This document shows positions 44,739 to 63,203 of a stretch of DNA of 64,000 nucleotides, in pieces. Position 1 is the first letter of the stretch, and every line of letters starts with the position of its first letter. The notes under the pieces were generated by a model. The model made no database searches. It worked only from the letters and a program-made list of their open reading frames with translations, and was not told the origin of the DNA. The position numbers and the translations under genes are program-made. Origin of the DNA: Candidatus Woesearchaeota archaeon (GTDB taxonomy: Archaea; Nanobdellota; Nanobdellia; Woesearchaeales; ARS49); contig JACQMY010000036.1 of the NCBI GenBank assembly GCA_016203305.1, forward strand, positions 1,886 through 65,885, given 5' to 3'.

Positions 44739-44854
44739 TGGGCCCGAGGAGATTTGAACTCCCGACCACTGGTGGGCTTAGAACGTCCGGGTGTTGTTTT
44801 GTGCCAGACGCGGTCATATAAGACCAGTGCTCTACCAGGCTAAGCTACGGGCCC
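44739..44854 (-). tRNA. tRNA-Ile (anticodon UAU inferred) with a 42-nt intron; CCA encoded (44736-44738)
   Basis: Manual fold: acceptor GGGCCCG/CGGGCCC, D-arm GCTT-AGCCTGGTA-GAGC, anticodon stem CTGGT/ACCAG, loop CTTATA|intron|C, T-arm GGGAG-TTCAAAT-CTCCT, then ACCA. Anticodon depends on the canonical 37/38 intron placement. Confidence 0.6.
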
Positions 44855-44975
44855 AGTGTGCTCGAACTGTTACTGTATTAAAAACTCTTCGGCCATCACA
44901 ATCATTCATCTCAGAAAACCCAAACCAGTATACAAAAGAGTAACTTTTATATACTTGAGTTCTTGTGAAATACTT

Positions 44976-46046: not shown

Positions 46047-46999
46047 ACATGGACGCCCCTGAAAGTACACTAGAAGAACATAATCCAGAACAAGAAGCCA
46101 AAAACCTGCCAGAAGAACAGGCAACGCCTTCAGCCGGCCAACAGCGCAAGAAAAAACAGCCTGCGCAAAAACCAACCAATAAAAACTCAAACGAGCAAAT
46201 GGATTTCTCAAAACTCAAAGAAAAACTCCAACAAACCCAAAGCGCGCCTACCATCGCCATATCAGGCAAAACGCACGTAGGCACAGGAATCGACGGCATA
46301 GACCAACTGTTTGCCAAAGGAATCCCCCGCGGAAGCACAACACTGGTTGTCGGAGGACCAGGAAGCGGCAAAACAATCTTCTGCCTGCAAACCCTATACG
46401 AAGCAGCAAAAGCAGGAGAGAAAGTCCTCTACATGACACTAGAAGAAGACACTGAAAGACTAAGACAACACATGAAAGACTTCGGATGGGATATAACGCC
46501 ACTAGAAAAAAGAGGCTTCTTTGTAATAAAAAAATTCAACCCAATGGACATCACAAGACAAATGGACGCAATGCTTGAACAAGTAAGAGGAGAACTCCTC
46601 ATCGACCTAAAGCCGCTCTTAATCCCAAAAGATTTTGAACCAGACAGAGTGGCGCTCGACAGCCTGTCAGCAGTCGCGGCAGCACTATTTGAAAAAGAAG
46701 AAAGCTACCGCTTATACCTGGAACAACTATTCAAACTCTTCAACGACATTGGAAGCACAGCATTTTTGATATCAGAAACCCCAGACCCGACGCAAAAACT
46801 AAGCGCCACAGGAACAGAAGAATTCCTCGCAGACGGAGTATTCATCTTCTACAACGTGAGAACAGGGAACTCAAGAGAAAGCGCATTCGAAATCCTCAAA
46901 ATGAGAGGAGCAAGCTTCAAGAAACAAATAGTGGCAATGCAAATCAAAGAAAACGGCATAGTCGTCTATCCAGAACAAGAAGTGTTTACGACGATATAG
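46013..46999 (+). CDS. KaiC-like RecA-superfamily ATPase with a low-complexity N-terminal extension
   Basis: 'GIDGIDQLFAKGIPRGSTTLVVGGPGSGKTIFCLQ' Walker A. 'VALDSLSAV' Walker B region. Confidence 0.75.
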   Translation: MDKQQRKHNEMNMDAPESTLEEHNPEQEAKNLPEEQATPSAGQQRKKKQPAQKPTNKNSNEQMDFSKLKEKLQQTQSAPTIAISGKTHVGTGIDGIDQLFAKGIPRGSTTLVVGGPGSGKTIFCLQTLYEAAKAGEKVLYMTLEEDTERLRQHMKDFGWDITPLEKRGFFVIKKFNPMDITRQMDAMLEQVRGELLIDLKPLLIPKDFEPDRVALDSLSAVAAALFEKEESYRLYLEQLFKLFNDIGSTAFLISETPDPTQKLSATGTEEFLADGVFIFYNVRTGNSRESAFEILKMRGASFKKQIVAMQIKENGIVVYPEQEVFTTI

Positions 47000-47084
47000 G
47001 ACGAAGGCGGAAGGTATTAGGCGTTAGGTTGTAGGAGTTAGGACGAAGGAAGAAGCACGTAGGTATCAGGATGAAGGGCGAAGA
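46999..47084 (+). repeat. heptad (GNNNWAG) array, 12 units
   Basis: ta ggacgaag gcggaag gtattag gcgttag gttgtag gagttag gacgaag gaagaag cacgtag gtatcag gatgaag ggcgaag. Confidence 0.8.
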
Positions 47085-47085
47085 T

Positions 47086-47127
47086 AGACGTTCTTCGTCC
47101 TTCCACCTTATACCTTCATCCTCGTGC
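47086..47127 (-). repeat. heptad array in inverted orientation, 3' flank of the minus-strand gene
   Basis: Reverse complement reads g gatgaag gtataag gtggaag gacgaag. With 46999-47084 it forms a convergent pair between two convergent genes. Confidence 0.7.
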
Positions 47128-47134
47128 AAGTACT

Positions 47135-48055
47135 TCACCCCTTTCTAAACCGGTTCAGCAACGCATACCTCCGATACTTCTGAACACCAGACTTCCAAGC
47201 AGCAAGCTCTGCCTTAACTTTCCGTCCACGCTCACGCAACTGCTCCATACGCTGCCGATATGAAAACCTGCCCATCTTACCAGCAAAATACTCCTCCTGA
47301 ACATGTTGCAAAGTCTTATTCGTTGCATCAATCACCCTTGAAGCCTCACGCTCCTTCTGCAAAGCAAACATCACGCGAAACTCAAGCCAGCCCCAAACTC
47401 CCAAAATAGCCAGGATTGCCAGAACCACAATCACACCGATCGTATGCCTCTTGACAAACTCTGTTATGTTCTTCTTTGCAATATAAGCAAACGTGCGTTC
47501 ACGAACGGCAGCAGACTCTGCCTCTGCCAAATGCATCCTAGTGGCATGCACCAAGACAAAAACTTCATCGTACCGTTCTGACTCAAAAGCATCACGCGCC
47601 TTTTCAAACGTCCGGTCAACCAAAGACATATTTACCGAAACATTCACCTGAACCAACAACGCACCCAAATCCTCCAACGCATCACGAGCGTCAAAAGCAG
47701 AAACCTTTTTCTCAGCAATCCATCGCCCAAGCTCAACCACTCTGGTTAAATTCTGACCGGGCCTCAACCCAGCACTCCGCGCTTGTGCAATCATCCTGAA
47801 ATACTCCTCAGCAAGAGGCTTTCCCTCCACTGATTCGTTCAAGTGGACAGCAGTCTGCAACAACGCGAACTCATCACGGCCAACCAAAGAGTCGTTCATT
47901 CTCAATAACGTATCTTCCAAAGAAGCATATGGAAGACCTGCCTTTTTAACCTGAGCAACATCAACAGTAGCGTTCAAAAACACCTCTTTTGCCTGCTCAA
48001 CAGAAACTGCACAAGCCAAAGAAGACAAAACAATTAACAAAAGCAACCACTTCAT
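47135..48055 (-). CDS. signal-peptide protein with a C-terminal TM helix and basic coiled coil; paralog of the giant protein's C-terminal anchor
   Basis: Signal 'MKWLLLLIVLSSLACA'. TM 'IGVIVVLAILAILGVWGWL' followed by a 'QEEYF'-type coiled coil, mirroring the C-terminus of the 4872-aa protein ('WWALALLAALALYGAL...EAQEAYF'). 4-nt overlap with it. Confidence 0.6.
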   Translation of the reverse strand: MKWLLLLIVLSSLACAVSVEQAKEVFLNATVDVAQVKKAGLPYASLEDTLLRMNDSLVGRDEFALLQTAVHLNESVEGKPLAEEYFRMIAQARSAGLRPGQNLTRVVELGRWIAEKKVSAFDARDALEDLGALLVQVNVSVNMSLVDRTFEKARDAFESERYDEVFVLVHATRMHLAEAESAAVRERTFAYIAKKNITEFVKRHTIGVIVVLAILAILGVWGWLEFRVMFALQKEREASRVIDATNKTLQHVQEEYFAGKMGRFSYRQRMEQLRERGRKVKAELAAWKSGVQKYRRYALLNRFRKG

Positions 48056-51000
48056 TTTCCCACCTCTTTCCTCAACTCTGCAATATGCGCGTCCAGCTCA
48101 GTTACCAAACTCTTGAACACCTGCATTCGAAGCTCATATCTCCTCCTGGAAATAACGTGATGAGCAAAATATGCCAATTGAGCCTCGCGCAAGCCACGCA
48201 TTGCCTCCTGGCGTTCTGCGATGGCCACCTTCAAAGCCTGATCCTTTCGGTACAAACGAGAACGCAACAAGCGCAGCCCAACCATGTCGCCAGTAATTCT
48301 TTCCAAACGCAACTGCAACTGGCCACTTGCACGCTCGAACTCCCTGCCACCAAGCTCGCGCCTGACAAAATAAGCCTCCTGAGCCTCACGCAACAACCGC
48401 TGCGCCTCAACACGCTCGCGCAACAACGCATCCAACCTGTACTTTATGAACGCAAGACGCGCAAGAAGCACTGCTTTAAGAGCGCCATACAAGGCAAGCG
48501 CTGCCAGCAACGCCAAAGCCCACCAGTACCTGCGCGCAACACTCTGCCACGTCCAAGCACGCTCTACAACTCTCAACTGCACGGCGAGCGCTTCATCTGC
48601 CAACGAGATCGCACGATCAAAGTCCTCACGCTCGAATGCCTTAACAGCAAGAGAAAGCAACTTCTCAACAGCAAGAACGTCAAGCCCTTCGTCCTCTGCC
48701 TTGTTTATCTCTGTCCTTACCTTATCCAACAAAGCGCCTGCTTCCAACTCGCGCTCCAACAACAAACGCAACTTCTCAACAACATACGCAGACTCCTTGT
48801 AATCACGTTGAACAAGAGCGTTCCTTAACATTCCGCGCAACACATCAGCCCGAGTAACAGGATAATCCTTTGCCACAACTATTGCATACAAGCTCTCCAC
48901 ATCAGTATAAGCACGCTCAACCTCATCCGATGTAACTTCTCGAATAATCAAACGGACCCGTTTGTACTCAACAACAGTCTTCCTAATCTTGGTTGAAAAC
49001 GGCAAACCATTCCTGAACTCAACACCCTCTGCTTCCAACAGAGAAGTCATTATGAAGGTTATGTTTACTTCTGATTGCTGCTCATAAGCAGGAGCGGCAA
49101 GCTCGATATCGAAAATCCTACTCTGCCCATACGGAATGTTCTCCAATGCTTGCGGGGACCAGTGAATGTATCTTGAGAGGTAGCCGTCAACAGTTAAATC
49201 AACACGTTTCATCAAGGAATTATTGTAAACGTTCGTAACAATCAACGGAAATACTATTCTTGTACCACGCTTAACCTCGATAGTCTCATTTGTCACTAAG
49301 GCAGCTCGCTCAAAAAATGTCTTCTGGAACGTGCCGGGATCTATCCCTCCACCGCCACCGCCCGCACCTCCTGCGCCACCAGCACCACCACCGCTGCCTG
49401 AGCCGCCACCTCCTACAACAAATCCAGGACCGGCAACAACCAATACTTGAGCCGTTGTACCAAGCGTCAAGTTCTGAGAAGAAAGCAGGACGCCAGAATC
49501 ATTAAACCCGTCAGCTGCAGTGCTAACATCCCTGAACCCAAGAACTGCGCCTGATGGAATCTGCACAATAATCGGCAACTCCTCACTAGCATTCGGTTCG
49601 ATCGTTCCAAAGAACGTTGACAAACCACCACCAGTTAGCACCCAATCAACAGGCAAGGTTATATTCAAAGTCACATTAGACGCATTCTTCGTGCCTCTGT
49701 TAGTTACCCTTGCAATAATCGAAATTCCTGACTGGCCACGCTGCACTTGAGACGGAATTACTGAAAAGTCGGCAAACAAGAATGCATCATCCACAGTTGT
49801 AATTGTGAAACTTGTGTTCAACTGCGCAGGAGACGCGTTCAGCGAGCTGCCAACAGTGGTCGCGTTGATAGTGATATTATTAGAGAATACACCAACAGTC
49901 CCAGGAGCAGTCGCGTTAACACCCACCATTCTGACCCCGCCAGGAGAAAGAGTAAAGTTAGTCTCGCTGAAGAAGGTGGCATTAAGAGTAGAGTTCAACA
50001 CAAACGATAAGTTCACATCCCCTGTATTATTAATAGTTATATTGCCCATCGAGATATTGACCCCCATCGGACTTGAGAACACACCCAAATTGGCAGGAGA
50101 ACGCGTCCACGTAGCCTCGAATGAAACATTAAACACTACAATTCCAGACGTGCCATTATTTCCTGCGGTGTCATTCCCAGTCATAAACACGATATAACTC
50201 CCCTCGACTGCAAGGAACGAAGCATTAAACTCACCAGTCAAGACATTGAACGACATCGACACATTTGCAAAAGAAGAACCGTTCACCACTATATGCAACA
50301 CCACAGAGTTCAAGTCAACAGCGGTGAAATTATCAGTAATGTTCGCAGTGAAATTAATCAACACTCCTGGATCCAGCGCGTCAACCGTACTCGGAGAGAA
50401 TAACAAACTCAAGAAGTCAGGAGGAGTACGGTCAACAGCAAATACCCTCGTTTCAGACGTGCTTGTATCAGCCGAAGTATCAGTACATGCAACCGCCCAA
50501 GTATAGTTGCCCTCTGACAGGCCTGAGACAGTAAAGTTTACCACTGAGTTATTCAGAACCGAAGAATTTGTCTGATTAACTGAACCATTCAACAACAATG
50601 AACAATTCAAAGTTGCAGACTCCGCGTCAGTCACGTTGGCAAAAAACAACACTGTCAAGTTTGTCGTGTTCGTCCCATTAGCAGGAGCAATGGAAACAAC
50701 AACAGGGGAGAGACCTGAAATAACCGTTGTCGACTCCGTAGCATTCACCTGCACAAACTCGCCTGACACGCTTACCGCTGACACGTTCACAGAGTTATTC
50801 AAAACAGTGCCGTTTGCAATACCATTGCTAACGTTCACCAAAATAGACAAGTTCACAGACGCGCCAGGAGAAAGATTGCCTAGCGAGAACGTACTATTGC
50901 CCGAAGCAGGGGCAGGAGAAGAACTCACAAACAACACGCCAGACGGATAGGTTTCATTCACCGTCACGTTATATGCAATCTCGCCGTCCAGATTCTGCAC

Positions 51001-54000
51001 TGTGATCGTGTAATTCAATTGCGACCCTTGCAAAACAGGATCAACAGAGTCAGATTTTGAAACAGCCAACGCAACAATACCTGCGATTGTTGTCGTCGTA
51101 CTATTCGTTACCGTAAAGTTCTGCCCTGTTGCGTTGGCAAACGAAACGTTATACGAATTATTCAACAATGAACCGTTGAAGGCAGCAAAGCTCACGTTAA
51201 CAGTAATGTTAATCGTTGTTGAACCTCCAGGCAAAATATTGCCAACGCTAAACGTGCCATTTCCTGAGCTTGGAAGAGGCTGACTGCCATTGAACGTCAC
51301 ATTAACAGGATAACCCTCAACAACAGTAACGTTGTACGCAATGTCATCACCAACATTGTTCACCATAATCTGGTACCGCAATGTTGAATTCACCGGAACA
51401 GGATCAGGACTATCAGACTTTGAAGTAAACACAACAGCGAATCCTGTAACAGTTGTGACCTCTGTATCGCTCGACGACCTATTACCGCCAGACGTGTTCT
51501 GGAATGAAACATTCACAAAATTTGAAAGCAACGTTCCATTTGCCAAGCCATTGCTCACATTAACAGTAATGTTCACAGTTGTAGACGCATTCGGAGACAA
51601 GTTACCTAGAGAAAACGTATTGTTTCCAACAGTTGGAACAGGACTACTGTTGTGGAACACAACACCAGACGGATAAGTTTCTGTCAAAGTAACATTAAAC
51701 GCAACATCATCACCAGTATTGTTAACCAAAATACTATAATTCACCTGCTGGCCTTTTATGACCGGATCGGGTGAATCAACTTTTACAACCGAGATCGTTG
51801 CAGCACCCAAAACAGTAGTCGTTGTGCTATTGCGCACAGTCGTGTTCACCCCAGAAACGTTTGCAAACGTAACGTTATAACTATTATTCAAAACCGAACC
51901 ATTCGCTGCAGCAGCGCTTACGTTCAGGGTAATATTCACTGTAGCGCTCTGACCAGGAGACAAGTTACCAAGCGAGAACGTATTGTTCCCAACGCTTGGA
52001 GCAGGACTGCTGTTGTGGAACGTAACATTCTCAGGATAATTCTCAACAACAGTCACATTATATGCTATCTCATCACCAAGGTTGCTTACCACAATGGAAT
52101 ACTGCAACTGCTCGCCTCTTGCGACCGGATCAGGAGCATCAGACTTGCTCGTAAATACAACAGGGAAACCAACAACAGTAGTCTGTTCAGTATCACTCGC
52201 GCTCTGATTTAGCCCAAACGTATTCTGGAAAGAGGCATTTGCAGTATTGTTCAACAACGTTCCATTTGCCAAGCCATTGCTCACATTAACAGTAATGTTG
52301 ACCGTTGTTGAAGCATTCGGAGACAAGTTACCTAGCGAAAACGTATTGTTTCCAACAGTTGGAACAGGACTACTGTTGTGGAACACAACACCCGACGGGT
52401 ATGAATCCAAAAACGTCAAGTTGAACGCAGTATCATCACCAGTATTGTTGATTAAGATACTATAATTCAACTGCTGACCCTTAACAACAGGATCAGGACT
52501 ATCGGTCTTAATCGTAACAACAACCGGCGCGCCCAGCACACTCGTAAGAGTGCTATTCGTAACCGTAGCGTTCTGACCAGAAGCATTCGCAAAAGTCACA
52601 TTATAACTATTGTTCAACACCGTACCATTCACCAATCCAAGGCTCACGTTCACAGTAATATTCACCGTTGTTGACATGTTTGGCGAAAGATTGCCTACTG
52701 AGAACGTGCCGTTTCCTGAGCTTGCAACAGGACTACTACTATGGAACAAGACACCAGAAGGATAACTCTCAACAACAGTCACGTTGAACGCAGTGGAGTT
52801 GCCAGTGTTGTTGATTAAGATGCTATAGTTCAACTGCTGACCTTTCACAACAGGATCAGGACTATCGGTCTTTGAAGTCGAGATAGAAGGCGTAACAAAT
52901 AGTGCAGTGAAGTTCGTAACCTCAGAGCTATTGACTCTGCCACTAGTATCATTCGCTATAATTGTCACATTGTACAAACCAGTGAGCGGGATGAAGAAAG
53001 ATGCATTATACTTACTTGTGCCAGGAACAATCACCAACACAACCTGCTGTATTGTTCCATTAGGCAAGGTCACGTTGGCAAGCACGGTATCAATAACGCC
53101 ATCATCAGTCACGTTGGCAGCAAGCTCAATTGTCTCACCAATGTTAAACGTGCTATTCACAACAGGCCTCAAGTCAAACACCAATGGAGTCACCAAGTCA
53201 CAAGTCCCATCCCACGAACTGCCATCAGTGAAGAAGCCTTTAAACACGCCCTGGCCAGAACTATTCGTGTATGCAACCACAAACCTGCCAGGACAGATAG
53301 AGTTATTTGTAACTGAAACACGACCTGCAACATCCAACAATCTGAACGTACTATTAGGCTGAGACTCGACTGTTATCTCGTTGCTTATGTTGGAACCACT
53401 CGCATTAAAAGTAGCTGCCTTGATCGCACCAGCATTCTCATCCCACCACGCGACAACAGCCACATCCTCAGAGCTTGTCTCATTCATCTTCACAGTACCC
53501 GCCGAAATTCGCGAAATGACTCCTGCATTCCCATCGATAGATGCCGGAGCGAACAGCACCACGTTATCGCTCGTCCTGCCAGCAATGTAAACGTTCTGAT
53601 CAACAGAATCGTAGAATGCCATGAAGAAAGAATTGTTCACTAATGAGCTATTCCCAAGCGAGGTCATCGCAACCTGCCCAGTTTCGCCGACATCAGCATC
53701 TATGTCAACCTGGCCTGTCAACAATGCCCCCGTCTCACTTTGAATGCTGAAAGTAGCATCGTTTGACAAGTCATCAAACCAGAAGTACGCCCACCGTGTA
53801 CTATTCGCACCAGCGCATCCAACCAAATTCTCATTAGGAGCAGCAGGAGCCATGTTGCCATCAACCGCTAACTCCCCAACAGACTGAGTTCCATTATTGA
53901 AGAACGTCAAGAATGACGCGTCTGCGTTCCCATCATTCGCATAACACGTCACAGACTGGTTAACGATAGAGGCAAGCTTCACATCAGTATTCAAACCAAT

Positions 54001-57000
54001 CCCTGCACGCACAACAGTCGGAGAAGTTGTGTTCGTTCCATTTATCAGGAACAGCCCCTGGGTCAAGTCATCAGATGGCCCATCAACCCACGAAATCAAA
54101 AAGTGCGTGCTATTGACCAAAGCAACATCAACCCGCGAAACATTATCCGCAGAAGTATCAACATCAGTCGTGTTCACAATCACGGTTCCATTCGTGTTCA
54201 TAATTCTAAATGAGACATCAGATTCATTGTTGTCAACAAACGCTATCACAAATGCGGTATTGTTAACAGGCGCAATAGCGACATCAACAGCAGAGCTTGT
54301 TTCAAGGAAGCCAGGGTCGTTCGGCGTGATAGTTATTGTATAATTCTGTCCAGGAGAGATGTTCATTATTTCAGACCAGTTACCCAAACACTCCTGACCT
54401 GAGAAGTTATAATTCTTACACGTGTACAAAAGATAGTCTCCAATCGCAGTAACCACTACGCTTGCATTGGTGAAATTAATCCCAGTCGGATCGATAGCGT
54501 ACTCGACAAAGGAGCCATTCGGCGTCTGGCTCTCTGAGAACGGATCATCAATGCGCAAAATACTCAAAATGCTGCTTGAATTGTGCAACAGCATGCTGAT
54601 AGATTTCACACGCGACCCGCTAATATTCGCAGAAAGGTTCAACATGCCAGAAACATTACTCGTCACGGACAAAGTGTAGTTAACAAATCCACCCGTACGG
54701 TTGACTATGTCGATCACATTCAAGCTCTGCCTTATGAACGTCAGCGTGAAAGAGTTGTTCACATTATTCAAAGTATCATTCGCAAATATTCTGATCGTAT
54801 AATTACCACGCTGCGTCAAGTTTGAGAATGACAAATTATACAAAGAGCCAGTAACGTTTGTCGAAAAGTTCTGCAAAGTGCCATCTGGATAGGTAATCTG
54901 CACCATAACCGTGCCAACACCCAGCCAATCAGTCACGTTCGCCGTGATGTTAATAGTATCGTTCAACAAGAACGAACCGCCAGCAACAGGACTCAACACT
55001 GAAACATTCGGAGGATTAACCTTAACGACAACTTGCCGCGTCTCAGTATTGTTGATATTGCCAGCCAAGTCAAACACTGTTGCATTAAAGAAGTACAAAC
55101 CGTCCGCAAGACCTGTGAAGTTCACAAAGTTAGGAGAACTGGAAGTATTACTGCTGTTAATCTCTCCGCCAGTCGAGTTGAACAAGCGAATTGTGGTGTT
55201 CGCAAAGTTCACGTCTGTTCCGGTCAAATTAACCAGGATATTCCGCCTCGCAATTGTGGAACCATTCGCATCAGTCGGAGAAACAAATTCAGCAGCCGGC
55301 CTCAAAGTATCAATCGTAATCGTCCTGTTCCCAGTCTGATTCGAATTACTACCTATATCGCTCACACTGCCAAAGTACTGGTACACGCCATCCGCAAGAC
55401 CTGTGAAGTTATTGAAGAACGACATGTTCAAAGGAGTGTAAGTAATATTTGACTGGTCAATAGTTGCAGTAACTGCAATCACCGGAGCATACTCGATGGT
55501 ATTCGATCCTATAAGCAAGAAGTTTGAAGCATTCTCAAACGTCTTCGGAGAAACATCAGAAGTTCCAATTGTCCCAACATTGTTCCCGTTAACAAGCACG
55601 TTCAAAGTACCGGAAATTACGGAAAAAGTGGCTGTCAAATTAGCCCTTGAAGCATTATCGGCAATAGTAATGACATGGCTCTGTGAGGTAAGACTTGCGA
55701 CAAAAGTTATGTCAGTGCCATTCGCTTCTGACCTGAGAGGAGTTGTAAAGTTCACACGAGAGCCATTAAGCTCGATAAGCGCAACACTCATGTTCGCTTC
55801 GTCAACAGAAATGTTCACGGGCACAAACGTATTGCCTGTAAACGTGTTGTCAGCAGGAGTTGGACCTACAAATCTAATCTGTGGAACAATGGTATCTAGC
55901 CCTACATTGAATGACGTCACCACTGTATTATTGATGTTGCCTTCAGTATCGTTCGCCCTGAAAGTAATATTATACTGCCCGTTCAAGTTCGGCGTTATGA
56001 AAGACCCATTATATTTATCCGTACCTGGAACTCTGGTCAAGTTAACCAAGAACGTCGTACCATTAGGGAAAGTAATGTTCGCAGTCACGTTATCAACAGC
56101 AATATTATCTGTAACGTTTGCAGAGATCTCGATCACGATGCCTGGAGCGAATGCCGTTCCTTCAAACGGACGCACATCAAACACCAAAGGCTGAATAGTG
56201 TCTGCAATAACTGTTGTGTTCTGAGAAGCATTCTGAGTAAAGTTAACACCAGACAGGTTGGCAAAAGTCACGTTAACAGTGTTATTGATGACCGTGCCAT
56301 TCGCCAGACCACGGCCAATATTCAATGTGATGTTAATTGTCGTGAAAGTTCCATTCGTCAGGTTTCCAAGCAAGAACGTATTGTTGCCCGAGCTTGGAAC
56401 AGGTTGGGAGCCATTGAATACTACGCTCACAGGATAATCCTCAAAAACAGTAATGTTATACGCGATCTCATCACCAGTATTGTTCACAACAATCTGATAC
56501 CGCAACGTAGCACCACGCACAACAGGATCAGGACTATCAGACTTATTTACAGAAACTTGAGCAAAGCCAAGAACTGTTGTTAGCTCTGAATCAGACACTG
56601 TGACATTCTGACCAGAAGCATTAGCAAAAGTAGCAGAAACACTATTGTTCAAAACAGAGCCGTTTGTCAAGCCATTACTCACATTAACAGTAATGTTAAT
56701 CGTGGTTGACTGGCCAGGCAACAAAGTGCTAAAGCCAAACGTGTTATTGCCGCTACTTGGAGCAGGCGTACTTGAATGAAACACAACACCAGATGGATAG
56801 CTCTCAACAACAGTCACATTATAAGCGATCTCACCACCCGTATTATTCACAAATATCGAATAGTTCAACTGCTGACCCTTTATGACGGGGTCAGGATTAT
56901 CATTCTTAATCGTGATAACAATAGGAGTACCCTGCACATTCGTAGTAGTACTGTTAGTCACGGTCGTGTTAACACCTGAAACGTTTGCGAACGTCGCATT

Positions 57001-60000
57001 AAACGAATTATTCAAAACAGAACCATTAGCCAAAGCACCACTAACATTAACAGTAATGTTAACAGTCGCACTCTGACCAGCAGACAAGTTGCCCAATGAG
57101 AACGTGTTGTTGCCAGAAGATGGTGAAGGTTGGCTTCCATTAAATACGACGTTTGAAGGATAACTATCAACAACAGTCACGTTATACGCAAATTCATCAC
57201 CCAAGTTTATCACAGTAATCTGATACGACAAAACAGAACCATTCAACACAGGATCAGGACTATCACTCTTAGAAGCGAACACAACAGGGAAACCAAGCAC
57301 AGTAGTAAGCTCAGAATCAACAACAGAACTATTCTGACCAGAACTATTCGCAAACGTAGCATTAACAACATTAGTCAAAACAGTACCATTTGCCAAACCA
57401 TTGCTAACGTTCACAGTGATGTTAATCGTCGTGGAAGAACCATTTGAGATATTGCCAAGCAAGAACGTGCCATTTCCTGAGCTTGCAACAGGACTGCTAT
57501 TATGGAACACCACGCCAGCAGGATAAGTTTCTACTACAGTAACGTTAAACGCAGTATCGTCACCAGTATTGTTGATTAAGATACTATAATTCAACTGCTG
57601 ACCTTTAACAACAGGATCAGGACTATCGCTCTTAATGTTCACAATAACAGGACTACCCAAAACAGCAGTTGTAGTACTATTGGTCACGGTCGTGTTAACA
57701 CCAGACAAGTTCGCAAAAGTAGCATTAAACGAGTTATTCAACACAGTACTATTTGTAAGAGCAGAACTCACATTAACAGTAATGTTCACGGTTGTTGATT
57801 GACCAGGAGACAAGTTGCCAAGACTAAACGTGTTATTGCCACTTGTTGGAACAGGTTGGGAGCCATTGAATACTACGCTCACAGGATAACCATCAACAAC
57901 ACTCACATTATATGCAAACTCATCACCCAAGTTCACCACAGTAATCTGATACCGCAAAGTTGTGCCCTTAGGCACAGGATCAGGACTATCACTCTTAGAA
58001 GCGAACACAACAGGGAAACCAAGCACAGTAGTAAGCTCAGAATCAGAAGCAGAACCATTCTGACCAGAACTATTCGCAAATGTAGCATTAACCGTGTTCG
58101 TCAAAACAGTACCATTAGACAGACCATTACTCACGTTCACAGTAATATTAACAGTTGTAGATGCGTTCGGAGACAAATTACCCAAACTAAACGTGCCGTT
58201 TCCTGAAATTGGAACAGGGCCACTACTATGGAAAACAACACCAGCAGGATAAGTTTCCACCAAGGTAACGTTAAACGCAGTATCGTCACCAGTATTGTTG
58301 ATTAAGATACTATAATTCAACTGCTGACCCTTAACAACAGGATCAGGACTATCGCTCTTCACAGACACCACCACAGGAGAACCAAGCACAGTAGTCAAAG
58401 TACTATTAGAAACTGTTGAGTTCTGACCGGCCAGACTTGCAAAAGTAACATTATAACTATTGTTCAACACGCTATTGTTAGTCAACCCAGCACTCACGTT
58501 CACAGTAATATTAACGGTTGTAGAAACGCCAGGCAACAAATTGCCAAGACTAAACGTGCCATTGCCTGAAGAAGGCGAAGGTTGTGAGCCATTAAATATA
58601 ACGTTTGCAGGATAGCCGTCAACAACAGTCACATTATACGCAATCTCTGTTCCAACGTTATTCACAACAATCTGGTACCGCAAAGTTGTACCCTTAGGCA
58701 CAGGATCAGGACTATCAGACTTGCTCGTGAACACCAAAGCAGCACCCTGCACAGTCGTAATAGTACTATTAGGCACGGTCGTGTTAACACCTGAAATGTT
58801 GGCAAAAGTCGCATTAAACGAATTATTCAAAACAGAACCATTCGCCAAAGCGGCACTCACGTTCACTGTGATATTGATCGTTGTAGATTGGCCAGGCAAC
58901 AAATTGCCAAGACTAAACGTGCCATTGCCAGAAGCAGGCGAAGGTTGTGAGCCATTAAATATAACGTTTGCAGGATAGCCGTCAACAACAGTCACATTAT
59001 ACGCAATCTCATCACCAGTGTTGAATACTGTGATCTGATAACGCAACGTCGACCCATTCAACACAGGATCAGGAGTATCCGCCTTGTCCGCAAACACAAC
59101 AGGGAAACCAAGCACAGTAGTCAAGATGCTTGTGTTAACAGACTGGTTGCCAGTCGAGTTCGAATAGTTCACAACAGCAGTATTGTTCAACAACGAGCCG
59201 TTTGACGCGCTCACGTTCACAGTAATGTTAACAAGGAAAGATCGACCAGCAGAAAGATTACCAATCGTGAACGTGTTATTACCCGAACTTGGAGCAGGCT
59301 GTGAACCGTTAAATACAACGTTTGTCGGATAAGTTTCGCGCACAGTAACATTCTCCGCAACTATCGTACCAGCATTTGACACGTTAATCTGATACCGCAG
59401 CGTTTGGCCTCTCACAACAGGATCAGGACTGTCAGACTTGGCAACAGTCACATTAGTAAACAACGCACCACTAATTGTAAAGGACCCTGAAACAGAGCTT
59501 GACGCACCAGACGAGTCAAGCGCGAACACTGTAAAGTTATACTGACCATTCTGAGTCGTATTAGTGAAGTTCAACTCGTACAACCCACTTGTTGTTGTGC
59601 CGCTCACTAAAGTCAAGTTGAACGACACAATACTACCGTTCGGCAAAGTCACGCTCACGTTAACCCTGCTGATGTTAATGTTATCCGTCGCGTTCACGGT
59701 AAAGTTCACAGTTCCATTTGTCGTGAAAATCGAACCATTTGCTGGAGAAACAACCAGGATGCTCGGAGCGGGATCAAAGCTGCCCCAGGCAAACATTGCA
59801 CACTGAGTCTGACCGTTCAAGCAATCGAGAGCTGTTTCAATAGTGGAAACATTCGTCCAGTTTGAACCATTCCACCTCGCGCTCGCCAAATTCTCTACAA
59901 AGCTAAAACCAAGCATCATAATCTCATTCGTAACAGGATGCGGGTAGAACTCAAGCGTTTCCACGCTATTCCCGCCACCAATCAACGAGCCAGTGAGCGG

Positions 60001-62670
60001 ACAGTTTATCATGCTCGAATGCGACCATGACGAGCTATTGTAACTGCATACCCGGGCATCATTATCAGCACCAGGCAAACCAGGTATATACCCGAATAAT
60101 CCATTGTTACTCTGGCTTTCGAACGCACAATCCAAACTCACCGCGCCCGCACCATTTGCCTCAATCGCAGCATCCTCGGCAGGAGGAACAGGAGAAGTCT
60201 CAACAGCACTGCCATTCCACATCCTGAAGTTGCCATCACCCGTAGTATCCTGGCTCACGAAACCAATACGATCAGATTTTTTATCGCCACAAAGACGCAT
60301 CCCATTCGGAGCACCGCTGTCCAAAGTGAAGAACACCTGATCAGCACTCCAAGACTTTGCAGAATAGTTAAACGTCCTGAACGCATAAGTCGTTGTAGAG
60401 TTTGCGTACACTACCAAGCCATCCTTGCTTGAACCCTCCCAAATAAAGTCAAACAATTGCTCGGCAATATCGTTAACGCTACCAGTAATGTTCATCTGAG
60501 TAGCATTATCAAACCCTGTACCGTTCCACATCACAGCAAAAATGTCAAGGTTCGCATCCTCCAATAAAACCATGACATCATCACTACCATTGCGGCCCAC
60601 AGTCTTAACCCAATGAACAGCAGCAGTAACATTCGTATTCAAAGCAAACTCAGAACTCCAACCAGTGCCATTATACAACCTATACTTAACCTGTCCATTC
60701 GCAACAATTGAATCTTCATAAACAATTAAGGCGTCTCCTGATATTTGCTCGAAATCAAGATCAAACCCTCTGCGCCCAGTATTCGGGTTGTCAAACGCCA
60801 ACGCCTGAAAGTCAGACCAGTTAGACTCGTACACCTGAACAGACGTGTTTGTATTAATGTCAAGAGTCCCCATCACAAACTTGTCAAACCTAGGTCCCGG
60901 ACGCAAAACCAGCCATTCAATATCCGCACCAACCGAGTTCGCATCAGTTTGTTCCTGCATAAATGACTGGTTTGACAAATTCCAGAACCGGTAACGCGGA
61001 GCAGGAACTGAAGCTTCAGCATAAGCAGCCAAGCCATCAGAACCAGCAGCAGTAACTGCAGCATCATGAATGAAGTCAAACTCAATAAATCCAGACAGTG
61101 CGTTCTCTGCAAACGTATTAGCATTACAATCAGGCTCTGTTGCATCACAATTATCATTCGTAATATTGCGCACAAGCTTGACCACTTTGAGGTCGAAAAC
61201 ATCTGTGCCAAATGGAACACCACCTAGTTTCACATATTGAACTTCAGCAATACCAGCAATACCAGAACGGCCAACTATCACAGAAGTATTCGCCACGTAA
61301 ATTTCAACATAGCTAACTGTTCCATTATCCCTTGCCAAAAAGTCGATCACGCTGCCATTCGTCAAGTTACGCTCGAAAGTTACTCTAACTTTATGGCCTG
61401 CTGGAATCGGCTCAGACCACACACCATCAATAGCGTTCACCTGTGAGAAGACATCGCTCACGAACGAACCGTTCTTGTCAAGATGAATGGCAGCAGTAGC
61501 ATTAATCTCGCCAAAGCCAGGGTCTTCCGGAGTAAGCTCAAACGAATACTCTCTACCCGGAATCAACCCAGACTTGAAAACAGACCAGCTACCAGCGCAA
61601 GATCTTGAATCAAAGTCCCACTGCTTACACTTCAACAAAGCAGTACCCTGAGCAACAACAGTAACAGTGGCTGTTGAGAAGTTCACCCCAACAGGATCAA
61701 TCGCGTACATCTGCACGAACCTGCCGGACTCAGGAGTATCATCAACACGCAAAACCTCACTTCCAGAAAGGTTAACATCCTCGAACTCAATCGAACTTAC
61801 AGGACCTGAATCCAAGTCAACCAAGACGTCAACACTTCTTGGAACCTCAACAGCAGAGCTTGTTCCCACACCCATTGCCTTCTGCGCCAATAACCTGCCA
61901 GTGCCACGCTCAAGGAATTTCACACTGCCCGAAACACCCCTGCCAGAAGCATCACGCACAACAAACACTGCAGAGACATTGGCTAATGCATTGACCTGTG
62001 CAGACCCATTCAAAACCAATTCTACAGACTCATTAACCAGGATCGAGTCGTTAATCGCCACCAGCTCTCCGCGCAATGAATTGTTCACAGTATTGTTAAC
62101 AGGCGGCTCAACTGGTACAACAGGCGAAGCGTTCTGCAACTGGTCAACCATTGCATCCAATGCATCCTCAACATACGGGGCAACAGCAGGAACATCCACA
62201 GTTTCGACAACCTCGACAGTAGGCGGTAGGTTGTAGATAGTAGGTAGTAGGTAGTAGGTGGTTGGCGGAACTGAATAGTTTGTAGTGGGCAGCGTGTAGT
62301 TTGTGGTTTGTGGCACGTCATCTGGTTGTTCAGACTCATTGACCGCATCAAGCGGTTCAACAGAATAGTTTGTAACAGGCACTGCATCAGAATCGTTCAA
62401 TAGCCCGACAGGCTGTTCAACTATGCCTGTGTTTTCTGTCGTGAATTCCACAACTAACTCTGACAAATTGTCTGGAGTTTGCACGACTTCCAAGACACGG
62501 CCAGGCACGTCAGGAACTGAAGCGTTCGACAAAGCAGAACCTAGCACGCTCAGTGCGTCGTCTACAAGAGGAGCAGAAGCTGGAACGTCAACAGTCTCTA
62601 TCACAGTCACGTTCTCTGCAGCAGCAGAAAGAACAAGTGCAAGTACCAACAAGAGAGTGAAGCGTTTCAT
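48052..62670 (-). CDS. giant (4872 aa) secreted surface protein with about 30 DUF11-type repeat domains, Gly-rich linker and C-terminal TM/coiled-coil anchor
   Basis: Signal peptide 'MKRFTLLLVLALVLSAAA'. Recurring '(K/S)SDSPDPV..G..L.Y.I.V.N.G' DUF11/TIGR01451-type repeats, N-glycosylation-sequon rich. 'GGGGSGSGGGAGGAGGAGGGGGG' linker. Uninterrupted 14.6-kb ORF. Confidence 0.85.
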   Translation of the reverse strand: MKRFTLLLVLALVLSAAAENVTVIETVDVPASAPLVDDALSVLGSALSNASVPDVPGRVLEVVQTPDNLSELVVEFTTENTGIVEQPVGLLNDSDAVPVTNYSVEPLDAVNESEQPDDVPQTTNYTLPTTNYSVPPTTYYLLPTIYNLPPTVEVVETVDVPAVAPYVEDALDAMVDQLQNASPVVPVEPPVNNTVNNSLRGELVAINDSILVNESVELVLNGSAQVNALANVSAVFVVRDASGRGVSGSVKFLERGTGRLLAQKAMGVGTSSAVEVPRSVDVLVDLDSGPVSSIEFEDVNLSGSEVLRVDDTPESGRFVQMYAIDPVGVNFSTATVTVVAQGTALLKCKQWDFDSRSCAGSWSVFKSGLIPGREYSFELTPEDPGFGEINATAAIHLDKNGSFVSDVFSQVNAIDGVWSEPIPAGHKVRVTFERNLTNGSVIDFLARDNGTVSYVEIYVANTSVIVGRSGIAGIAEVQYVKLGGVPFGTDVFDLKVVKLVRNITNDNCDATEPDCNANTFAENALSGFIEFDFIHDAAVTAAGSDGLAAYAEASVPAPRYRFWNLSNQSFMQEQTDANSVGADIEWLVLRPGPRFDKFVMGTLDINTNTSVQVYESNWSDFQALAFDNPNTGRRGFDLDFEQISGDALIVYEDSIVANGQVKYRLYNGTGWSSEFALNTNVTAAVHWVKTVGRNGSDDVMVLLEDANLDIFAVMWNGTGFDNATQMNITGSVNDIAEQLFDFIWEGSSKDGLVVYANSTTTYAFRTFNYSAKSWSADQVFFTLDSGAPNGMRLCGDKKSDRIGFVSQDTTGDGNFRMWNGSAVETSPVPPAEDAAIEANGAGAVSLDCAFESQSNNGLFGYIPGLPGADNDARVCSYNSSSWSHSSMINCPLTGSLIGGGNSVETLEFYPHPVTNEIMMLGFSFVENLASARWNGSNWTNVSTIETALDCLNGQTQCAMFAWGSFDPAPSILVVSPANGSIFTTNGTVNFTVNATDNINISRVNVSVTLPNGSIVSFNLTLVSGTTTSGLYELNFTNTTQNGQYNFTVFALDSSGASSSVSGSFTISGALFTNVTVAKSDSPDPVVRGQTLRYQINVSNAGTIVAENVTVRETYPTNVVFNGSQPAPSSGNNTFTIGNLSAGRSFLVNITVNVSASNGSLLNNTAVVNYSNSTGNQSVNTSILTTVLGFPVVFADKADTPDPVLNGSTLRYQITVFNTGDEIAYNVTVVDGYPANVIFNGSQPSPASGNGTFSLGNLLPGQSTTINITVNVSAALANGSVLNNSFNATFANISGVNTTVPNSTITTVQGAALVFTSKSDSPDPVPKGTTLRYQIVVNNVGTEIAYNVTVVDGYPANVIFNGSQPSPSSGNGTFSLGNLLPGVSTTVNITVNVSAGLTNNSVLNNSYNVTFASLAGQNSTVSNSTLTTVLGSPVVVSVKSDSPDPVVKGQQLNYSILINNTGDDTAFNVTLVETYPAGVVFHSSGPVPISGNGTFSLGNLSPNASTTVNITVNVSNGLSNGTVLTNTVNATFANSSGQNGSASDSELTTVLGFPVVFASKSDSPDPVPKGTTLRYQITVVNLGDEFAYNVSVVDGYPVSVVFNGSQPVPTSGNNTFSLGNLSPGQSTTVNITVNVSSALTNSTVLNNSFNATFANLSGVNTTVTNSTTTAVLGSPVIVNIKSDSPDPVVKGQQLNYSILINNTGDDTAFNVTVVETYPAGVVFHNSSPVASSGNGTFLLGNISNGSSTTINITVNVSNGLANGTVLTNVVNATFANSSGQNSSVVDSELTTVLGFPVVFASKSDSPDPVLNGSVLSYQITVINLGDEFAYNVTVVDSYPSNVVFNGSQPSPSSGNNTFSLGNLSAGQSATVNITVNVSGALANGSVLNNSFNATFANVSGVNTTVTNSTTTNVQGTPIVITIKNDNPDPVIKGQQLNYSIFVNNTGGEIAYNVTVVESYPSGVVFHSSTPAPSSGNNTFGFSTLLPGQSTTINITVNVSNGLTNGSVLNNSVSATFANASGQNVTVSDSELTTVLGFAQVSVNKSDSPDPVVRGATLRYQIVVNNTGDEIAYNITVFEDYPVSVVFNGSQPVPSSGNNTFLLGNLTNGTFTTINITLNIGRGLANGTVINNTVNVTFANLSGVNFTQNASQNTTVIADTIQPLVFDVRPFEGTAFAPGIVIEISANVTDNIAVDNVTANITFPNGTTFLVNLTRVPGTDKYNGSFITPNLNGQYNITFRANDTEGNINNTVVTSFNVGLDTIVPQIRFVGPTPADNTFTGNTFVPVNISVDEANMSVALIELNGSRVNFTTPLRSEANGTDITFVASLTSQSHVITIADNASRANLTATFSVISGTLNVLVNGNNVGTIGTSDVSPKTFENASNFLLIGSNTIEYAPVIAVTATIDQSNITYTPLNMSFFNNFTGLADGVYQYFGSVSDIGSNSNQTGNRTITIDTLRPAAEFVSPTDANGSTIARRNILVNLTGTDVNFANTTIRLFNSTGGEINSSNTSSSPNFVNFTGLADGLYFFNATVFDLAGNINNTETRQVVVKVNPPNVSVLSPVAGGSFLLNDTINITANVTDWLGVGTVMVQITYPDGTLQNFSTNVTGSLYNLSFSNLTQRGNYTIRIFANDTLNNVNNSFTLTFIRQSLNVIDIVNRTGGFVNYTLSVTSNVSGMLNLSANISGSRVKSISMLLHNSSSILSILRIDDPFSESQTPNGSFVEYAIDPTGINFTNASVVVTAIGDYLLYTCKNYNFSGQECLGNWSEIMNISPGQNYTITITPNDPGFLETSSAVDVAIAPVNNTAFVIAFVDNNESDVSFRIMNTNGTVIVNTTDVDTSADNVSRVDVALVNSTHFLISWVDGPSDDLTQGLFLINGTNTTSPTVVRAGIGLNTDVKLASIVNQSVTCYANDGNADASFLTFFNNGTQSVGELAVDGNMAPAAPNENLVGCAGANSTRWAYFWFDDLSNDATFSIQSETGALLTGQVDIDADVGETGQVAMTSLGNSSLVNNSFFMAFYDSVDQNVYIAGRTSDNVVLFAPASIDGNAGVISRISAGTVKMNETSSEDVAVVAWWDENAGAIKAATFNASGSNISNEITVESQPNSTFRLLDVAGRVSVTNNSICPGRFVVAYTNSSGQGVFKGFFTDGSSWDGTCDLVTPLVFDLRPVVNSTFNIGETIELAANVTDDGVIDTVLANVTLPNGTIQQVVLVIVPGTSKYNASFFIPLTGLYNVTIIANDTSGRVNSSEVTNFTALFVTPSISTSKTDSPDPVVKGQQLNYSILINNTGNSTAFNVTVVESYPSGVLFHSSSPVASSGNGTFSVGNLSPNMSTTVNITVNVSLGLVNGTVLNNSYNVTFANASGQNATVTNSTLTSVLGAPVVVTIKTDSPDPVVKGQQLNYSILINNTGDDTAFNLTFLDSYPSGVVFHNSSPVPTVGNNTFSLGNLSPNASTTVNITVNVSNGLANGTLLNNTANASFQNTFGLNQSASDTEQTTVVGFPVVFTSKSDAPDPVARGEQLQYSIVVSNLGDEIAYNVTVVENYPENVTFHNSSPAPSVGNNTFSLGNLSPGQSATVNITLNVSAAAANGSVLNNSYNVTFANVSGVNTTVRNSTTTTVLGAATISVVKVDSPDPVIKGQQVNYSILVNNTGDDVAFNVTLTETYPSGVVFHNSSPVPTVGNNTFSLGNLSPNASTTVNITVNVSNGLANGTLLSNFVNVSFQNTSGGNRSSSDTEVTTVTGFAVVFTSKSDSPDPVPVNSTLRYQIMVNNVGDDIAYNVTVVEGYPVNVTFNGSQPLPSSGNGTFSVGNILPGGSTTINITVNVSFAAFNGSLLNNSYNVSFANATGQNFTVTNSTTTTIAGIVALAVSKSDSVDPVLQGSQLNYTITVQNLDGEIAYNVTVNETYPSGVLFVSSSPAPASGNSTFSLGNLSPGASVNLSILVNVSNGIANGTVLNNSVNVSAVSVSGEFVQVNATESTTVISGLSPVVVSIAPANGTNTTNLTVLFFANVTDAESATLNCSLLLNGSVNQTNSSVLNNSVVNFTVSGLSEGNYTWAVACTDTSADTSTSETRVFAVDRTPPDFLSLLFSPSTVDALDPGVLINFTANITDNFTAVDLNSVVLHIVVNGSSFANVSMSFNVLTGEFNASFLAVEGSYIVFMTGNDTAGNNGTSGIVVFNVSFEATWTRSPANLGVFSSPMGVNISMGNITINNTGDVNLSFVLNSTLNATFFSETNFTLSPGGVRMVGVNATAPGTVGVFSNNITINATTVGSSLNASPAQLNTSFTITTVDDAFLFADFSVIPSQVQRGQSGISIIARVTNRGTKNASNVTLNITLPVDWVLTGGGLSTFFGTIEPNASEELPIIVQIPSGAVLGFRDVSTAADGFNDSGVLLSSQNLTLGTTAQVLVVAGPGFVVGGGGSGSGGGAGGAGGAGGGGGGIDPGTFQKTFFERAALVTNETIEVKRGTRIVFPLIVTNVYNNSLMKRVDLTVDGYLSRYIHWSPQALENIPYGQSRIFDIELAAPAYEQQSEVNITFIMTSLLEAEGVEFRNGLPFSTKIRKTVVEYKRVRLIIREVTSDEVERAYTDVESLYAIVVAKDYPVTRADVLRGMLRNALVQRDYKESAYVVEKLRLLLERELEAGALLDKVRTEINKAEDEGLDVLAVEKLLSLAVKAFEREDFDRAISLADEALAVQLRVVERAWTWQSVARRYWWALALLAALALYGALKAVLLARLAFIKYRLDALLRERVEAQRLLREAQEAYFVRRELGGREFERASGQLQLRLERITGDMVGLRLLRSRLYRKDQALKVAIAERQEAMRGLREAQLAYFAHHVISRRRYELRMQVFKSLVTELDAHIAELRKEVGK

Positions 62671-62831
62671 TTTTTCTTCACCCTCTTCAGCGTCAACTTG
62701 CCACTCTCAAAACCAAAATCGATCTCATCCTTATCGTTCCACTCGAGAATTTTCACTAAAGTCTTAGGAATCGTTAGAATATACTGATCTTTAGGAGTCC
62801 TCTGTAATTTGCGTGTGATTCCCTTCGTCAC
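62667..62831 (-). CDS. small AbrB/SpoVT-family (swapped-hairpin) DNA-binding protein, GTG start, stop overlapping the giant-gene start
   Basis: Hand-translated: (V/M)TKGITRKLQRTPKDQYILTIPKTLVKILEWNDKDEIDFGFESGKLTLKRVKKK. 'ILTIPKTLVKIL' resembles the AbrB/MazE 'vtIPkei' motif. ATGA overlap with the giant ORF. Confidence 0.4.
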   Translation of the reverse strand: MTKGITRKLQRTPKDQYILTIPKTLVKILEWNDKDEIDFGFESGKLTLKRVKKK

Positions 62832-62956
62832 TTATTACTTCCTCTTTTCCTTTGAAATTCATATGAAAATGGAGCGCCTATTTAAAAGCTTTGTGGTGTG
62901 GTAAAAGGTATACTGGTACAATTGAGGAGTACATTCTTGACATATGATAAGTAGTA

Positions 62957-63001
62957 TGATGAATAATATGATGAATAATATGAAGATTCATATGAATCTA
63001 A
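62957..63001 (+). promoter_or_regulatory. tandem 12-mer plus palindrome upstream of the AbrB-like/giant-protein operon (candidate operator)
   Basis: TATGATGAATAA x2 (62957-62980) followed by the palindrome AGATTCATATGAATCT (62986-63001). TTTTAAATA box about 55 nt upstream of the GTG on the minus strand. Confidence 0.4.
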
Positions 63002-63099: not shown

Positions 63100-63203
63100 G
63101 CCGCGGTAGTATAGTCCGGTCAAGTATTCGGCCCTTTCGAGGCAGCCAGCAAGTGCTGGTCCAAAGCTAGGCTGAGACACGGGTTCAAATCCCGTCCGCG
63201 GCA
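63100..63203 (+). tRNA. tRNA-Glu (anticodon UUC) with an intron of about 29 nt
   Basis: Manual fold: acceptor GCCGCGG/CCGCGGC, anticodon stem CGGCC/GGCTG, loop CTTTCG|intron with ccagca-ag-tgctgg hairpin|A, T-arm ACGGG-TTCAAAT-CCCGT. T-run follows. Confidence 0.65.

Follow-up and report, generated by a model that had tools for sequence, protein, structure and literature searches.

The 64,000-nucleotide (nt) stretch of DNA analysed here, referred to as the window throughout, belongs to contig JACQMY010000036.1 of a Candidatus Woesearchaeota archaeon, and it carries on its minus strand a gene that encodes a single protein of 4872 amino acids (aa). This protein, called the giant below, is best read as a fibrillar protein anchored in the membrane at the surface of a DPANN archaeon near the Woesearchaeota, predicted to be heavily N-glycosylated and most likely serving as an adhesin or contact fibre, a reading to which we assign a probability of roughly 0.7 on the strength of the sequence. 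A life in attachment to host cells is assumed for DPANN archaea, and the molecules with which they make and sense contact are almost unknown. An exact look-up of the 4872-aa product returned no record. The protein begins with a signal peptide and an acidic N-terminal region, continues with two “supermodules”, and ends with Ig (immunoglobulin)-like and NEW3 domains, a poly-Gly hinge and an anchor; each supermodule consists of a beta-rich head, then a Big_7 Ig domain, then an array of domains of the CLIPPER family (formerly DUF11), with nine units in the first array and six in the second. The parts of the gene, given in the order in which they are translated, are as follows.

48052-62670, minus strand: giant surface-protein gene, 4872 aa, ATG start, frame open over 14.6 kb
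62614-62670, minus strand: signal peptide, aa 1-19, with a hydrophobic window at aa 4-25 after MKR
61810-62613, minus strand: acidic N-terminal region, aa 20-287, with short TTNY-type peptide repeats and no family match
59776-61809, minus strand: head 1, aa 288-965, beta-rich modules with recurring WNG-type motifs, the candidate ligand-binding part
59449-59775, minus strand: Big_7 domain (PF17957), copy 1 of 4
56191-59448, minus strand: CLIPPER/DUF11 array 1, units U1-U9, aa 1075-2160
54724-56190, minus strand: middle Ig-like region, aa 2161-2649, with Big_7, Big_13 and Big_7 matches
53188-54723, minus strand: head 2, aa 2650-3161, a copy of the head-1 beta module followed by about seven repeats of about 50 aa
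52882-53187, minus strand: Big_7 domain, copy 4
50704-52881, minus strand: CLIPPER/DUF11 array 2, units U10-U15, aa 3264-3989, which contains the pair of similar tracts given as an example in a preliminary description of this DNA
49426-50703, minus strand: Ig-like, CARDB-like and NEW3 domains, aa 3990-4415, with Big_13, Big_3_3 and NPCBM_assoc matches
49345-49425, minus strand: poly-Gly hinge, aa 4416-4442 (27 residues, Gly-rich)
48052-49344, minus strand: anchor module, aa 4443-4872, comprising an Ig sandwich, a helical bundle, a transmembrane (TM) helix and a cytoplasmic helical tail

The topology of the protein follows from only two strongly hydrophobic segments in its 4872 residues, the first of which is the N-terminus, MKRFTLLLVLALVLSAAA, and the second of which is a single TM helix at aa 4717-4742 (window 48445-48522), followed by 130 charged helical residues with 22% Lys plus Arg. 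The intervening chain is densely populated with N-x-S/T sequons, which occur 365 times, compared to 104.7 ± 8.6 times in 1000 shuffles, an excess of about 30 standard deviations. The excess is directional, the reversed motif occurring 109 times, and it follows the topology, with about 10 sequons per 100 aa in the arrays (about 12 per CLIPPER unit), about 1 in the membrane-proximal anchor and 0 in the tail. The protein does not fall into the class sorted by archaeosortases, because no Pfam match to a sorting signal (PGF-CTERM and related signals, consisting of a motif, a TM segment and a short basic tail) was obtained for it and because a helical tail of 130 residues follows the TM helix. The preliminary description had proposed the 4872-aa protein, the dense sequons, the poly-Gly linker and the C-terminal TM anchor, all of which are borne out by these results. 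It had also proposed a signal peptide, which is present, but the repeats that it placed directly after this peptide begin only at aa 1075, and it had missed both the two heads and the fact that the C-terminal anchor forms a conserved family with a conserved neighbourhood.

The assignment of the arrays to the CLIPPER family is straightforward. PF01345 (DUF11) matches the giant with 386.6 bits against a cutoff of 24.6 bits, in 15 separate stretches (Pfam), and TIGR01451 matches it with 137.5 and 95.6 bits against a cutoff of 24 bits (NCBIfam), so that domain annotation upholds the DUF11 identity suggested earlier. A count of the unit motif gives exactly 15 units with a period of 121 aa (363 nt), arranged in arrays of 9 and 6, so that the earlier estimate of about 30 domains is too high. 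The family, now renamed CLIPPER, is described as a stalk domain of fibrillar adhesins in bacteria and archaea. Its crystal structure, 9IFR, has a CnaA-like Ig fold in which Asp748 catalyses an isopeptide bond between Lys715 and Asn806; with this bond the domain unfolds at about 80 °C rather than about 45 °C and resists proteases (PMC12617251). In the giant, K4, D/E38 and N91 are invariant across all 15 units, and their spacings of +34 and +87 are near those of K715, D748 and N806 in 9IFR, although no residue-level alignment to 9IFR was obtained; the invariance of these residues indicates that the units may be locked by isopeptide bonds of the same kind. Its repetitive stalk, signal peptide and cell-surface anchor are among the features expected of a fibrillar adhesin, and its arrays can be regarded as a routine CLIPPER stalk.

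The heads are the parts of the protein which could supply a binding function. The sequence of head 1 matches a partial Woesearchaeota protein (P0001) at 50% identity across 798 aa, and its first part (aa 269-540) is 37% identical to a second protein (P0002), in which a BNR/beta-helix protein follows; the heads are conserved with these two proteins and with a third, P0005 (RJQ21346.1), a partial DUF11 domain-containing protein from a Candidatus Woesearchaeota. The two heads have in common a beta module of about 100 aa (aa 2704-2808 compared to aa 306-404, 43% identical). Periodic motifs, represented by the seven repeats of about 50 aa in head 2 and by only three strict motif matches in head 1, suggest that the heads may possibly be propellers. 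The four Big_7 copies of the protein span aa 969-1067, 2161-2256, 2554-2644 and 3162-3255. In the acidic region that precedes head 1, 7- and 21-nt tandem repeats (62218-62268, at about aa 135-150) encode TTNY(S/T)xP-like peptides. As a separate observation near the N-terminus, a segment of about 30 aa (VIETVDVPASAP...) is present twice, at aa 22-50 and 153-181.

Several results weigh against the interpretation of the giant as a contact fibre with locked stalk units. Both heads lack any Pfam, NCBIfam or PDB sequence match, and the AlphaFold2 (AF2) model of head 1, built from 3 sequences, is unreliable, with a predicted local distance difference test score (pLDDT) of 42; since the heads match no family and this model cannot be used, the adhesive role is argued from the architecture only. 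Searches of PDB sequences with a two-unit segment and with a 15-unit profile found nothing meaningful, so that the Lys, Asp/Glu and Asn triad is not mapped onto a solved CLIPPER structure, and the isopeptide bond is absent from some DUF11 domains (PMC12617251). Comparison of the middle Ig-like region with PDB sequences also gave nothing meaningful, and a scan of GTDB genomes with head 1 gave no relative.

The most informative part of the giant is its C-terminus. Neither Pfam nor NCBIfam contains a match to the last 433 aa, and word-index searches that used an anchor profile or the C-terminal 453 aa found nothing useful, while an exhaustive HMMER search with the last 433 aa matched 546 cluster representatives at E <= 1e-3, of which 347 matched at E <= 1e-10. 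Most of these matches are full-length and lie at or near the C-terminus of host proteins whose median length is 1553 aa and whose maximum is 5086 aa, and all members of the family that carry an organism name are from DPANN archaea (Woese-, Pace-, Aenigm- and Nanoarchaeota), where they are annotated as hypothetical. The AF2 model of the anchor, built from 20 family members, reaches a pLDDT of 85.7. Module residues 23-138 form an Ig sandwich, 142-275 a helical bundle and 277-329 a long helix that includes the TM segment, and three more helices follow; only the Ig part was matched when the model was compared to the PDB with Foldseek. The tail carries a conserved motif, Q..YF..K..IS...Y, twice.

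What lies in front of the anchor varies. The anchor usually follows a NEW3 domain and a Gly-rich linker, the linker being found just upstream of it in 80 of 118 family members, and the passengers carry 5.9 sequons per 100 aa across the family, compared to 0.9 for the anchor. DUF11 motifs occur in only one passenger, that of P0005, among the 118 members surveyed. Judged from these sequences, the anchor is a common platform for diverse passengers, and it provides a sequence handle with which DPANN surface fibres can be found in metagenomes.

The anchor also has a small partner. The protein encoded directly downstream of the giant has 306 aa; behind its signal peptide come a helical ectodomain and a TM helix, and its tail carries the Q..YF motif once. 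Profile methods identify this protein as a distant paralog of the anchor (94.5% probability and E = 7.7e-8 with hhalign; E = 1.9e-7 with hmmsearch), and they alone reveal the kinship, direct BLASTP between the two not being significant. The partner and other genes around the giant are the following.

47135-48055, minus strand: 306-aa partner gene, downstream of the giant, co-oriented with it and overlapping it by 4 nt (ATGA)
62667-62831, minus strand: AbrB/MazE-like ORF (open reading frame) of 54 aa with a GTG start, whose stop overlaps the ATG of the giant (ATGA)
46013-46999, plus strand: KaiC-like ATPase (PF06745, E = 2.7e-54)
44856-46046, plus strand: ORF for a secreted protein that has a TM helix at its N-terminus and no family match
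41772-43379, plus strand: HAMP histidine kinase
40707-41734, plus strand: a pair of iKaiC-like genes (DUF835/DUF7504-type), one of 170 aa and one of 176 aa

The conservation of this arrangement was evaluated in eight loci, namely the window and L002, L004, L005, L006, L007, L008 and L009, which stem from at least the Woese- and Aenigmarchaeota plus a marine sample. All eight loci contain the small anchor paralog, which lies directly downstream of the giant in four. Two unannotated genes separate it from the giant in L009. In L007 (5001-11348, protein P0010) the giant and the paralog are joined in one protein, with the paralog at the C-terminal end as a second anchor-like module at aa 1853-2087. 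Gene fusion is classical evidence of a functional link. Two further observations concern the spacing of these genes: in L004 (19258-20028) and L005 (9234-10046) a gene for a ParA/MinD-type ATPase, which overlaps the stop of the giant, lies between the giant and the paralog, and in L007 a further giant of 3537 aa, which has a 336-aa gene of its own downstream, is found immediately upstream of P0010.

A small ORF overlaps the start of the giant in five of the eight loci. In the window this is the 54-aa AbrB-like ORF, which matches PF04014 with E = 4.5e-5 and 23.7 bits, below the cutoff of 24.7 bits, and which is preceded by a Shine-Dalgarno-like sequence, GGAAAAGAGG, and a TATA-like sequence, TTTTAAATA (62879-62887, minus strand); it probably heads an operon of three genes. 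In L006 a tandem-duplicated AbrB-like homolog occupies this position, and in L004, L005 and L008 the overlapping ORFs have 71-73 aa and no family match, those of L004 and L005 having the look of winged helices when inspected by eye. Just upstream of the putative promoter in the window there is an intergenic 12-nt tandem repeat (ATATGATGAATA, 4.5 copies, 62942-62995), which could be a binding array for a regulator.

A KaiC-like ATPase is another constant neighbour. It lies within four genes of the giant in all eight loci, and in six of them it belongs to one orthologous subfamily, the window copy being 53-79% identical to the copies in L002 and L006-L009, which is far better conservation than that of the giants' anchors (25-30%). 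The identification of this gene as ArlH was ruled out, since it scores 48.5 bits against a cutoff of 215 bits. DUF835 is described as an inactivated KaiC domain (PMC5847659), and other DPANN loci with homologous giants likewise have iKaiC-like genes, a histidine kinase or response regulators nearby. Synteny with the window is seen in L002, the locus of P0005, where the shared order is a giant, an overlapping gene for the partner (306 aa in the window and 334 aa in L002), a KaiC-like gene on the other strand, a secreted protein (396 and 365 aa, respectively) and a histidine kinase. The ORF for the secreted protein is kept beside the KaiC-like gene in both Woesearchaeota loci; judging by the 365-aa ortholog in L002, translation in the window probably starts at an internal Met (MRHVVIALAAL...), which would give a protein of about 356 aa. 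A predicted archaeal secretion system built around arCOG01314, MoxR and vWA proteins (PMC5898192) was also considered as a candidate and ruled out, no component of it being found in the neighbourhoods.

These neighbourhoods raise the possibility that the giant is mainly a surface receptor, which would relay contact via its TM helix, tail and partner to the KaiC-like ATPase and to the iKaiC and two-component proteins. The presence of the ATPase within four genes in every locus, its conservation relative to the anchors, the closeness of the iKaiC-like genes, histidine kinase and response regulators, and the repeated conserved motif in the tail all speak for a receptor, and work cited by PMC5847659 and PMC6393860 has put forward the idea that KaiC-like ATPases serve archaea as signalling hubs. 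The argument is, however, one of gene order, the strand of the KaiC-like gene is in most cases not that of the giant, and KaiC-like genes are numerous in archaea. A function that is chiefly that of a receptor is therefore considered rather improbable, although it is the strongest of the competing explanations and is compatible with a role as an adhesin.

A broader proposal can be made only tentatively, and we consider it less likely than not to be correct as a whole, though not remote: the giant may be one passenger of a surface display and sensing system found across the DPANN archaea, composed of the anchor, the co-translated partner (in some genomes one protein with the giant), a small DNA-binding protein whose gene heads the operon, and a dedicated, highly conserved KaiC-like ATPase with iKaiC proteins. 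If this were true, the system would couple contact between fibre and host to intracellular signalling or to the assembly of attachment structures. The anchor cassette in any case offers a testable hypothesis about how fibres are mounted and perhaps linked to signalling. No description of the anchor together with its partner and KaiC-like neighbour was found in the literature or in domain libraries, of which the coverage was incomplete, so that an earlier description may exist.

Taking the contact-fibre reading as the working interpretation, the following sequence of events may be envisaged. The giant would be exported by the Sec pathway and N-glycosylated over most of its ectodomain. Its CLIPPER arrays would act as rigid, protease-resistant stalks or spacers, each unit perhaps cross-linked between Lys and Asn, and the two heads would bind a ligand, for which the lifestyle of DPANN archaea makes a host cell a plausible site. 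Fully stretched, the fibre would measure several hundred nanometres. The poly-Gly hinge would let it swing, and the protein would be mounted via its TM helix and paired with the partner through their helical, TM and tail regions.

The preliminary description had offered a choice between an adhesin and an S-layer-associated protein, and of these the adhesin or surface protein is the more reasonable reading. A lattice-forming or anchoring S-layer protein would share the sequon-rich, Ig-like build and the membrane anchor with the archaeal S-layer proteins, NEW3/CARDB-type domains are often annotated as S-layer-like, and the S-layer candidates proposed for DPANN archaea are Ig-rich glycoproteins (bioRxiv 10.1101/2023.10.27.564410). 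Against this, no S-layer family is found among the Pfam and NCBIfam matches of the whole giant or of its segments, its 4872 aa are about five times the length of the proposed DPANN S-layer proteins (about 1000 aa), and the occurrence of two anchor-family giants in tandem in one genome (L007), together with the wide variation among passengers, fits variable display better than it fits a lattice subunit. An S-layer function is accordingly improbable.

The similarity of the repeats at the level of DNA must be separated into its effects on whole units and on shorter tracts, since the two give different impressions of the age of the arrays. Whole units are only 51-83% identical in nt sequence, with no pair above 83%, and they belong to two subtypes which alternate along the arrays, “RYQI” (U2, U3, U5, U7, U12 and U14) and “QQLNYSI” (U4, U6, U8, U10, U11 and U13). 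Embedded in these divergent units are much more similar tracts. The example in the preliminary description, 51560-51670 compared to 52290-52400, is real and extends over 51529-51672 and 52255-52398, the two copies lying 726 nt apart and agreeing at 138 of 144 bases. Other tracts are found between U2 and U3 (58528-58647 and 58891-59010, 118/120), between U4 and U6 (57515-57633 and 58241-58359, 114/119), and in pairs that join both arrays, namely U4 and U11 (52424-52504 and 58274-58354, 80/81, offset 5850 nt) and U6 and U11 (86/89, offset 5124 nt). The longest exact repeat within the gene is 75 nt.

A statistical comparison supports the distinctness of the tracts, with two qualifications that count against their interpretation as products of conversion. 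Each of the nine longest tracts lies above all 300 column shuffles, a test which disregards rate variation between sites. Codons for the same amino acid are identical in 84-97% of cases inside the tracts compared to 47-69% outside, with a gene-wide background of 52.5%, a contrast which is partly circular because the tracts were selected for their similarity. The identity of synonymous codons inside the tracts implies that homogenization acts at the level of DNA.

The age of the arrays can be judged from P0005, whose anchor is 51% identical to that of the giant (HMMER, last 433 aa) and which is collinear with the C-terminal 2664 residues of the giant, up to the point where its sequence ends at the end of a contig. 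Array 2 of P0005 also has six units, in the same subtype order, which implies that the duplications predate the split of the two lineages. Units in corresponding positions of the giant and P0005 are 54-66% identical (61-66% in the comparison with same-subtype units), while paralogous units of the same subtype are 80-85% identical in the giant and 60% identical in P0005, so that the similarity between paralogs has been renewed in the lineage of the window. The claim of recent intragenic duplication in the preliminary description is not sustained by these results, because no units exceed 83% identity, because their number and order are older than the split from P0005, and because the similarity is confined to mosaic patches of 80-144 nt. 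The tracts instead indicate gene conversion, that is, concerted evolution, among old units within and between the arrays in this lineage, and the repeat similarity is then an ordinary case of concerted evolution. Intragenic homogenization of repeats is common in giant repeat adhesins.

The tracts might alternatively be explained by recent tandem duplication with fast divergence elsewhere, or by purifying selection on the protein, and it is true that tracts are offset by one or two units and that some of them lie in well-conserved parts of the domain. Against this stand the synonymous codons, which are identical inside the tracts and not outside them, the tracts that join non-adjacent units and both arrays over 5124 and 5850 nt, and a unit number and subtype order that are older than the split from P0005, so that this explanation is unlikely. 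The gene also differs from a contingency-type repeat gene, its units being at most 83% identical, its exact repeats at most 75 nt long, and array 2 of P0005 also having six units. Variation in length driven by recombination, which the preliminary description had envisaged, is possible for this gene. A related observation is that two members of the anchor family in one 90%-identity cluster, P0061 (4110 aa) and P0162 (4309 aa), differ by a block of about 200 aa in a region of repeats, which could be real copy-number variation or a difference in assembly.

The integrity of the assembly was evaluated using an independent Logan assembly of SRR12113384 (L001, 4407 nt), which is identical to window positions 47080-51468; the sole departure from the window is in its final 18 bases, some 60 nt short of a conversion tract. 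The assemblies of the giant gene and its ortholog break inside it, the Logan contig near 51469 and the contigs L002 and L003 inside the ortholog, which implies that the repeats do hinder assembly; nevertheless, that the arrays are collapsed, expanded or chimeric and the length of the ORF therefore unreal is very improbable, since the frame is open over 14.6 kb in an exact 363-nt register, exact repeats of at most 75 nt can be spanned by 150-nt paired reads, the independent contig matches base for base over 4.4 kb, and P0005, which comes from a syntenic locus, has the same six-unit array 2 and subtype order. Collapse or expansion of the arrays is accordingly unlikely.

The remainder of the window contains several features that do not touch on the giant directly.

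44739-44854, minus strand: tRNA gene
63100-63203, plus strand: tRNA gene
25455-25538, minus strand: tRNA gene
8367-8439, plus strand: tRNA gene
27532-29097, minus strand: chemotaxis gene, CheA
31744-33681, minus strand: chemotaxis gene, methyl-accepting protein
34011-35237, plus strand: chemotaxis gene, HAMP-PAS protein
43583-44539, plus strand: gene for a protein with helix-turn-helix and minimal-nucleotidyltransferase (MNT) domains, abutted by a 143-aa ORF with no family match

Three of the tRNA genes are unusually long (116, 104 and 84 nt), two of them were missed by ARAGORN, and their length suggests that they carry introns, a feature that speaks for an archaeal origin of the DNA; that the named homologs of the giant are Woese-, Pace-, Aenigm- and Nanoarchaeota speaks for a DPANN origin. 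The chemotaxis set suggests a motile, free-swimming stage. The 143-aa ORF is possibly the HEPN partner of the nucleotidyltransferase protein, MNT-HEPN pairs being typical of DPANN archaea (PMC6393860).

Comparison of the giant with known systems places it closest to the CLIPPER fibrillar adhesins (PMC12617251; 9IFR), with which it shares tandem stalk units of about 120 aa, a signal peptide, strong hidden Markov model matches and a conserved set of Lys, Asp/Glu and Asn residues at similar spacing. It differs from them in several respects. The archaeal examples (PMC12617251) mostly end in archaeosortase signals, while the C-terminus of the giant is formed by a 430-aa anchor that includes a TM helix and a cytoplasmic tail; in addition, its arrays are split by a second head, its units are unusually rich in sequons, and its isopeptide bond is only putative. 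A DUF11-repeat protein of Methanothermobacter sp. CaT2 has been implicated in cell-cell aggregation (Sumikawa et al. 2019, PMC6759345), and it resembles the giant in being an archaeal surface protein with tandem DUF11 repeats, although it comes from another archaeal lineage and is not known to share a gene neighbourhood with the giant. The surface proteins of cultivated DPANN archaea have in common with the giant their many sequons, stacked Ig-like domains, single C-terminal TM segment and proposed role in host contact, but they have about 1000 aa or less and are without DUF11 arrays. The bacterial giant adhesins, namely Bap, SiiE, the LapA type and Giant1-5 of Apilactobacillus (PMC12863079), are likewise fibres of several thousand residues built from Ig-like repeats with terminal binding regions, but they have no sequence kinship with the giant beyond generic Ig folds, and they use a type I secretion system or a sortase, whereas the archaeal protein has a Sec signal, an integral TM anchor and a paralogous partner. 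The fibre itself is thus of a known kind, and what sets it apart is its mounting, in which a large anchor that is conserved across DPANN archaea is accompanied by its paralogous partner and a conserved KaiC-like neighbour.

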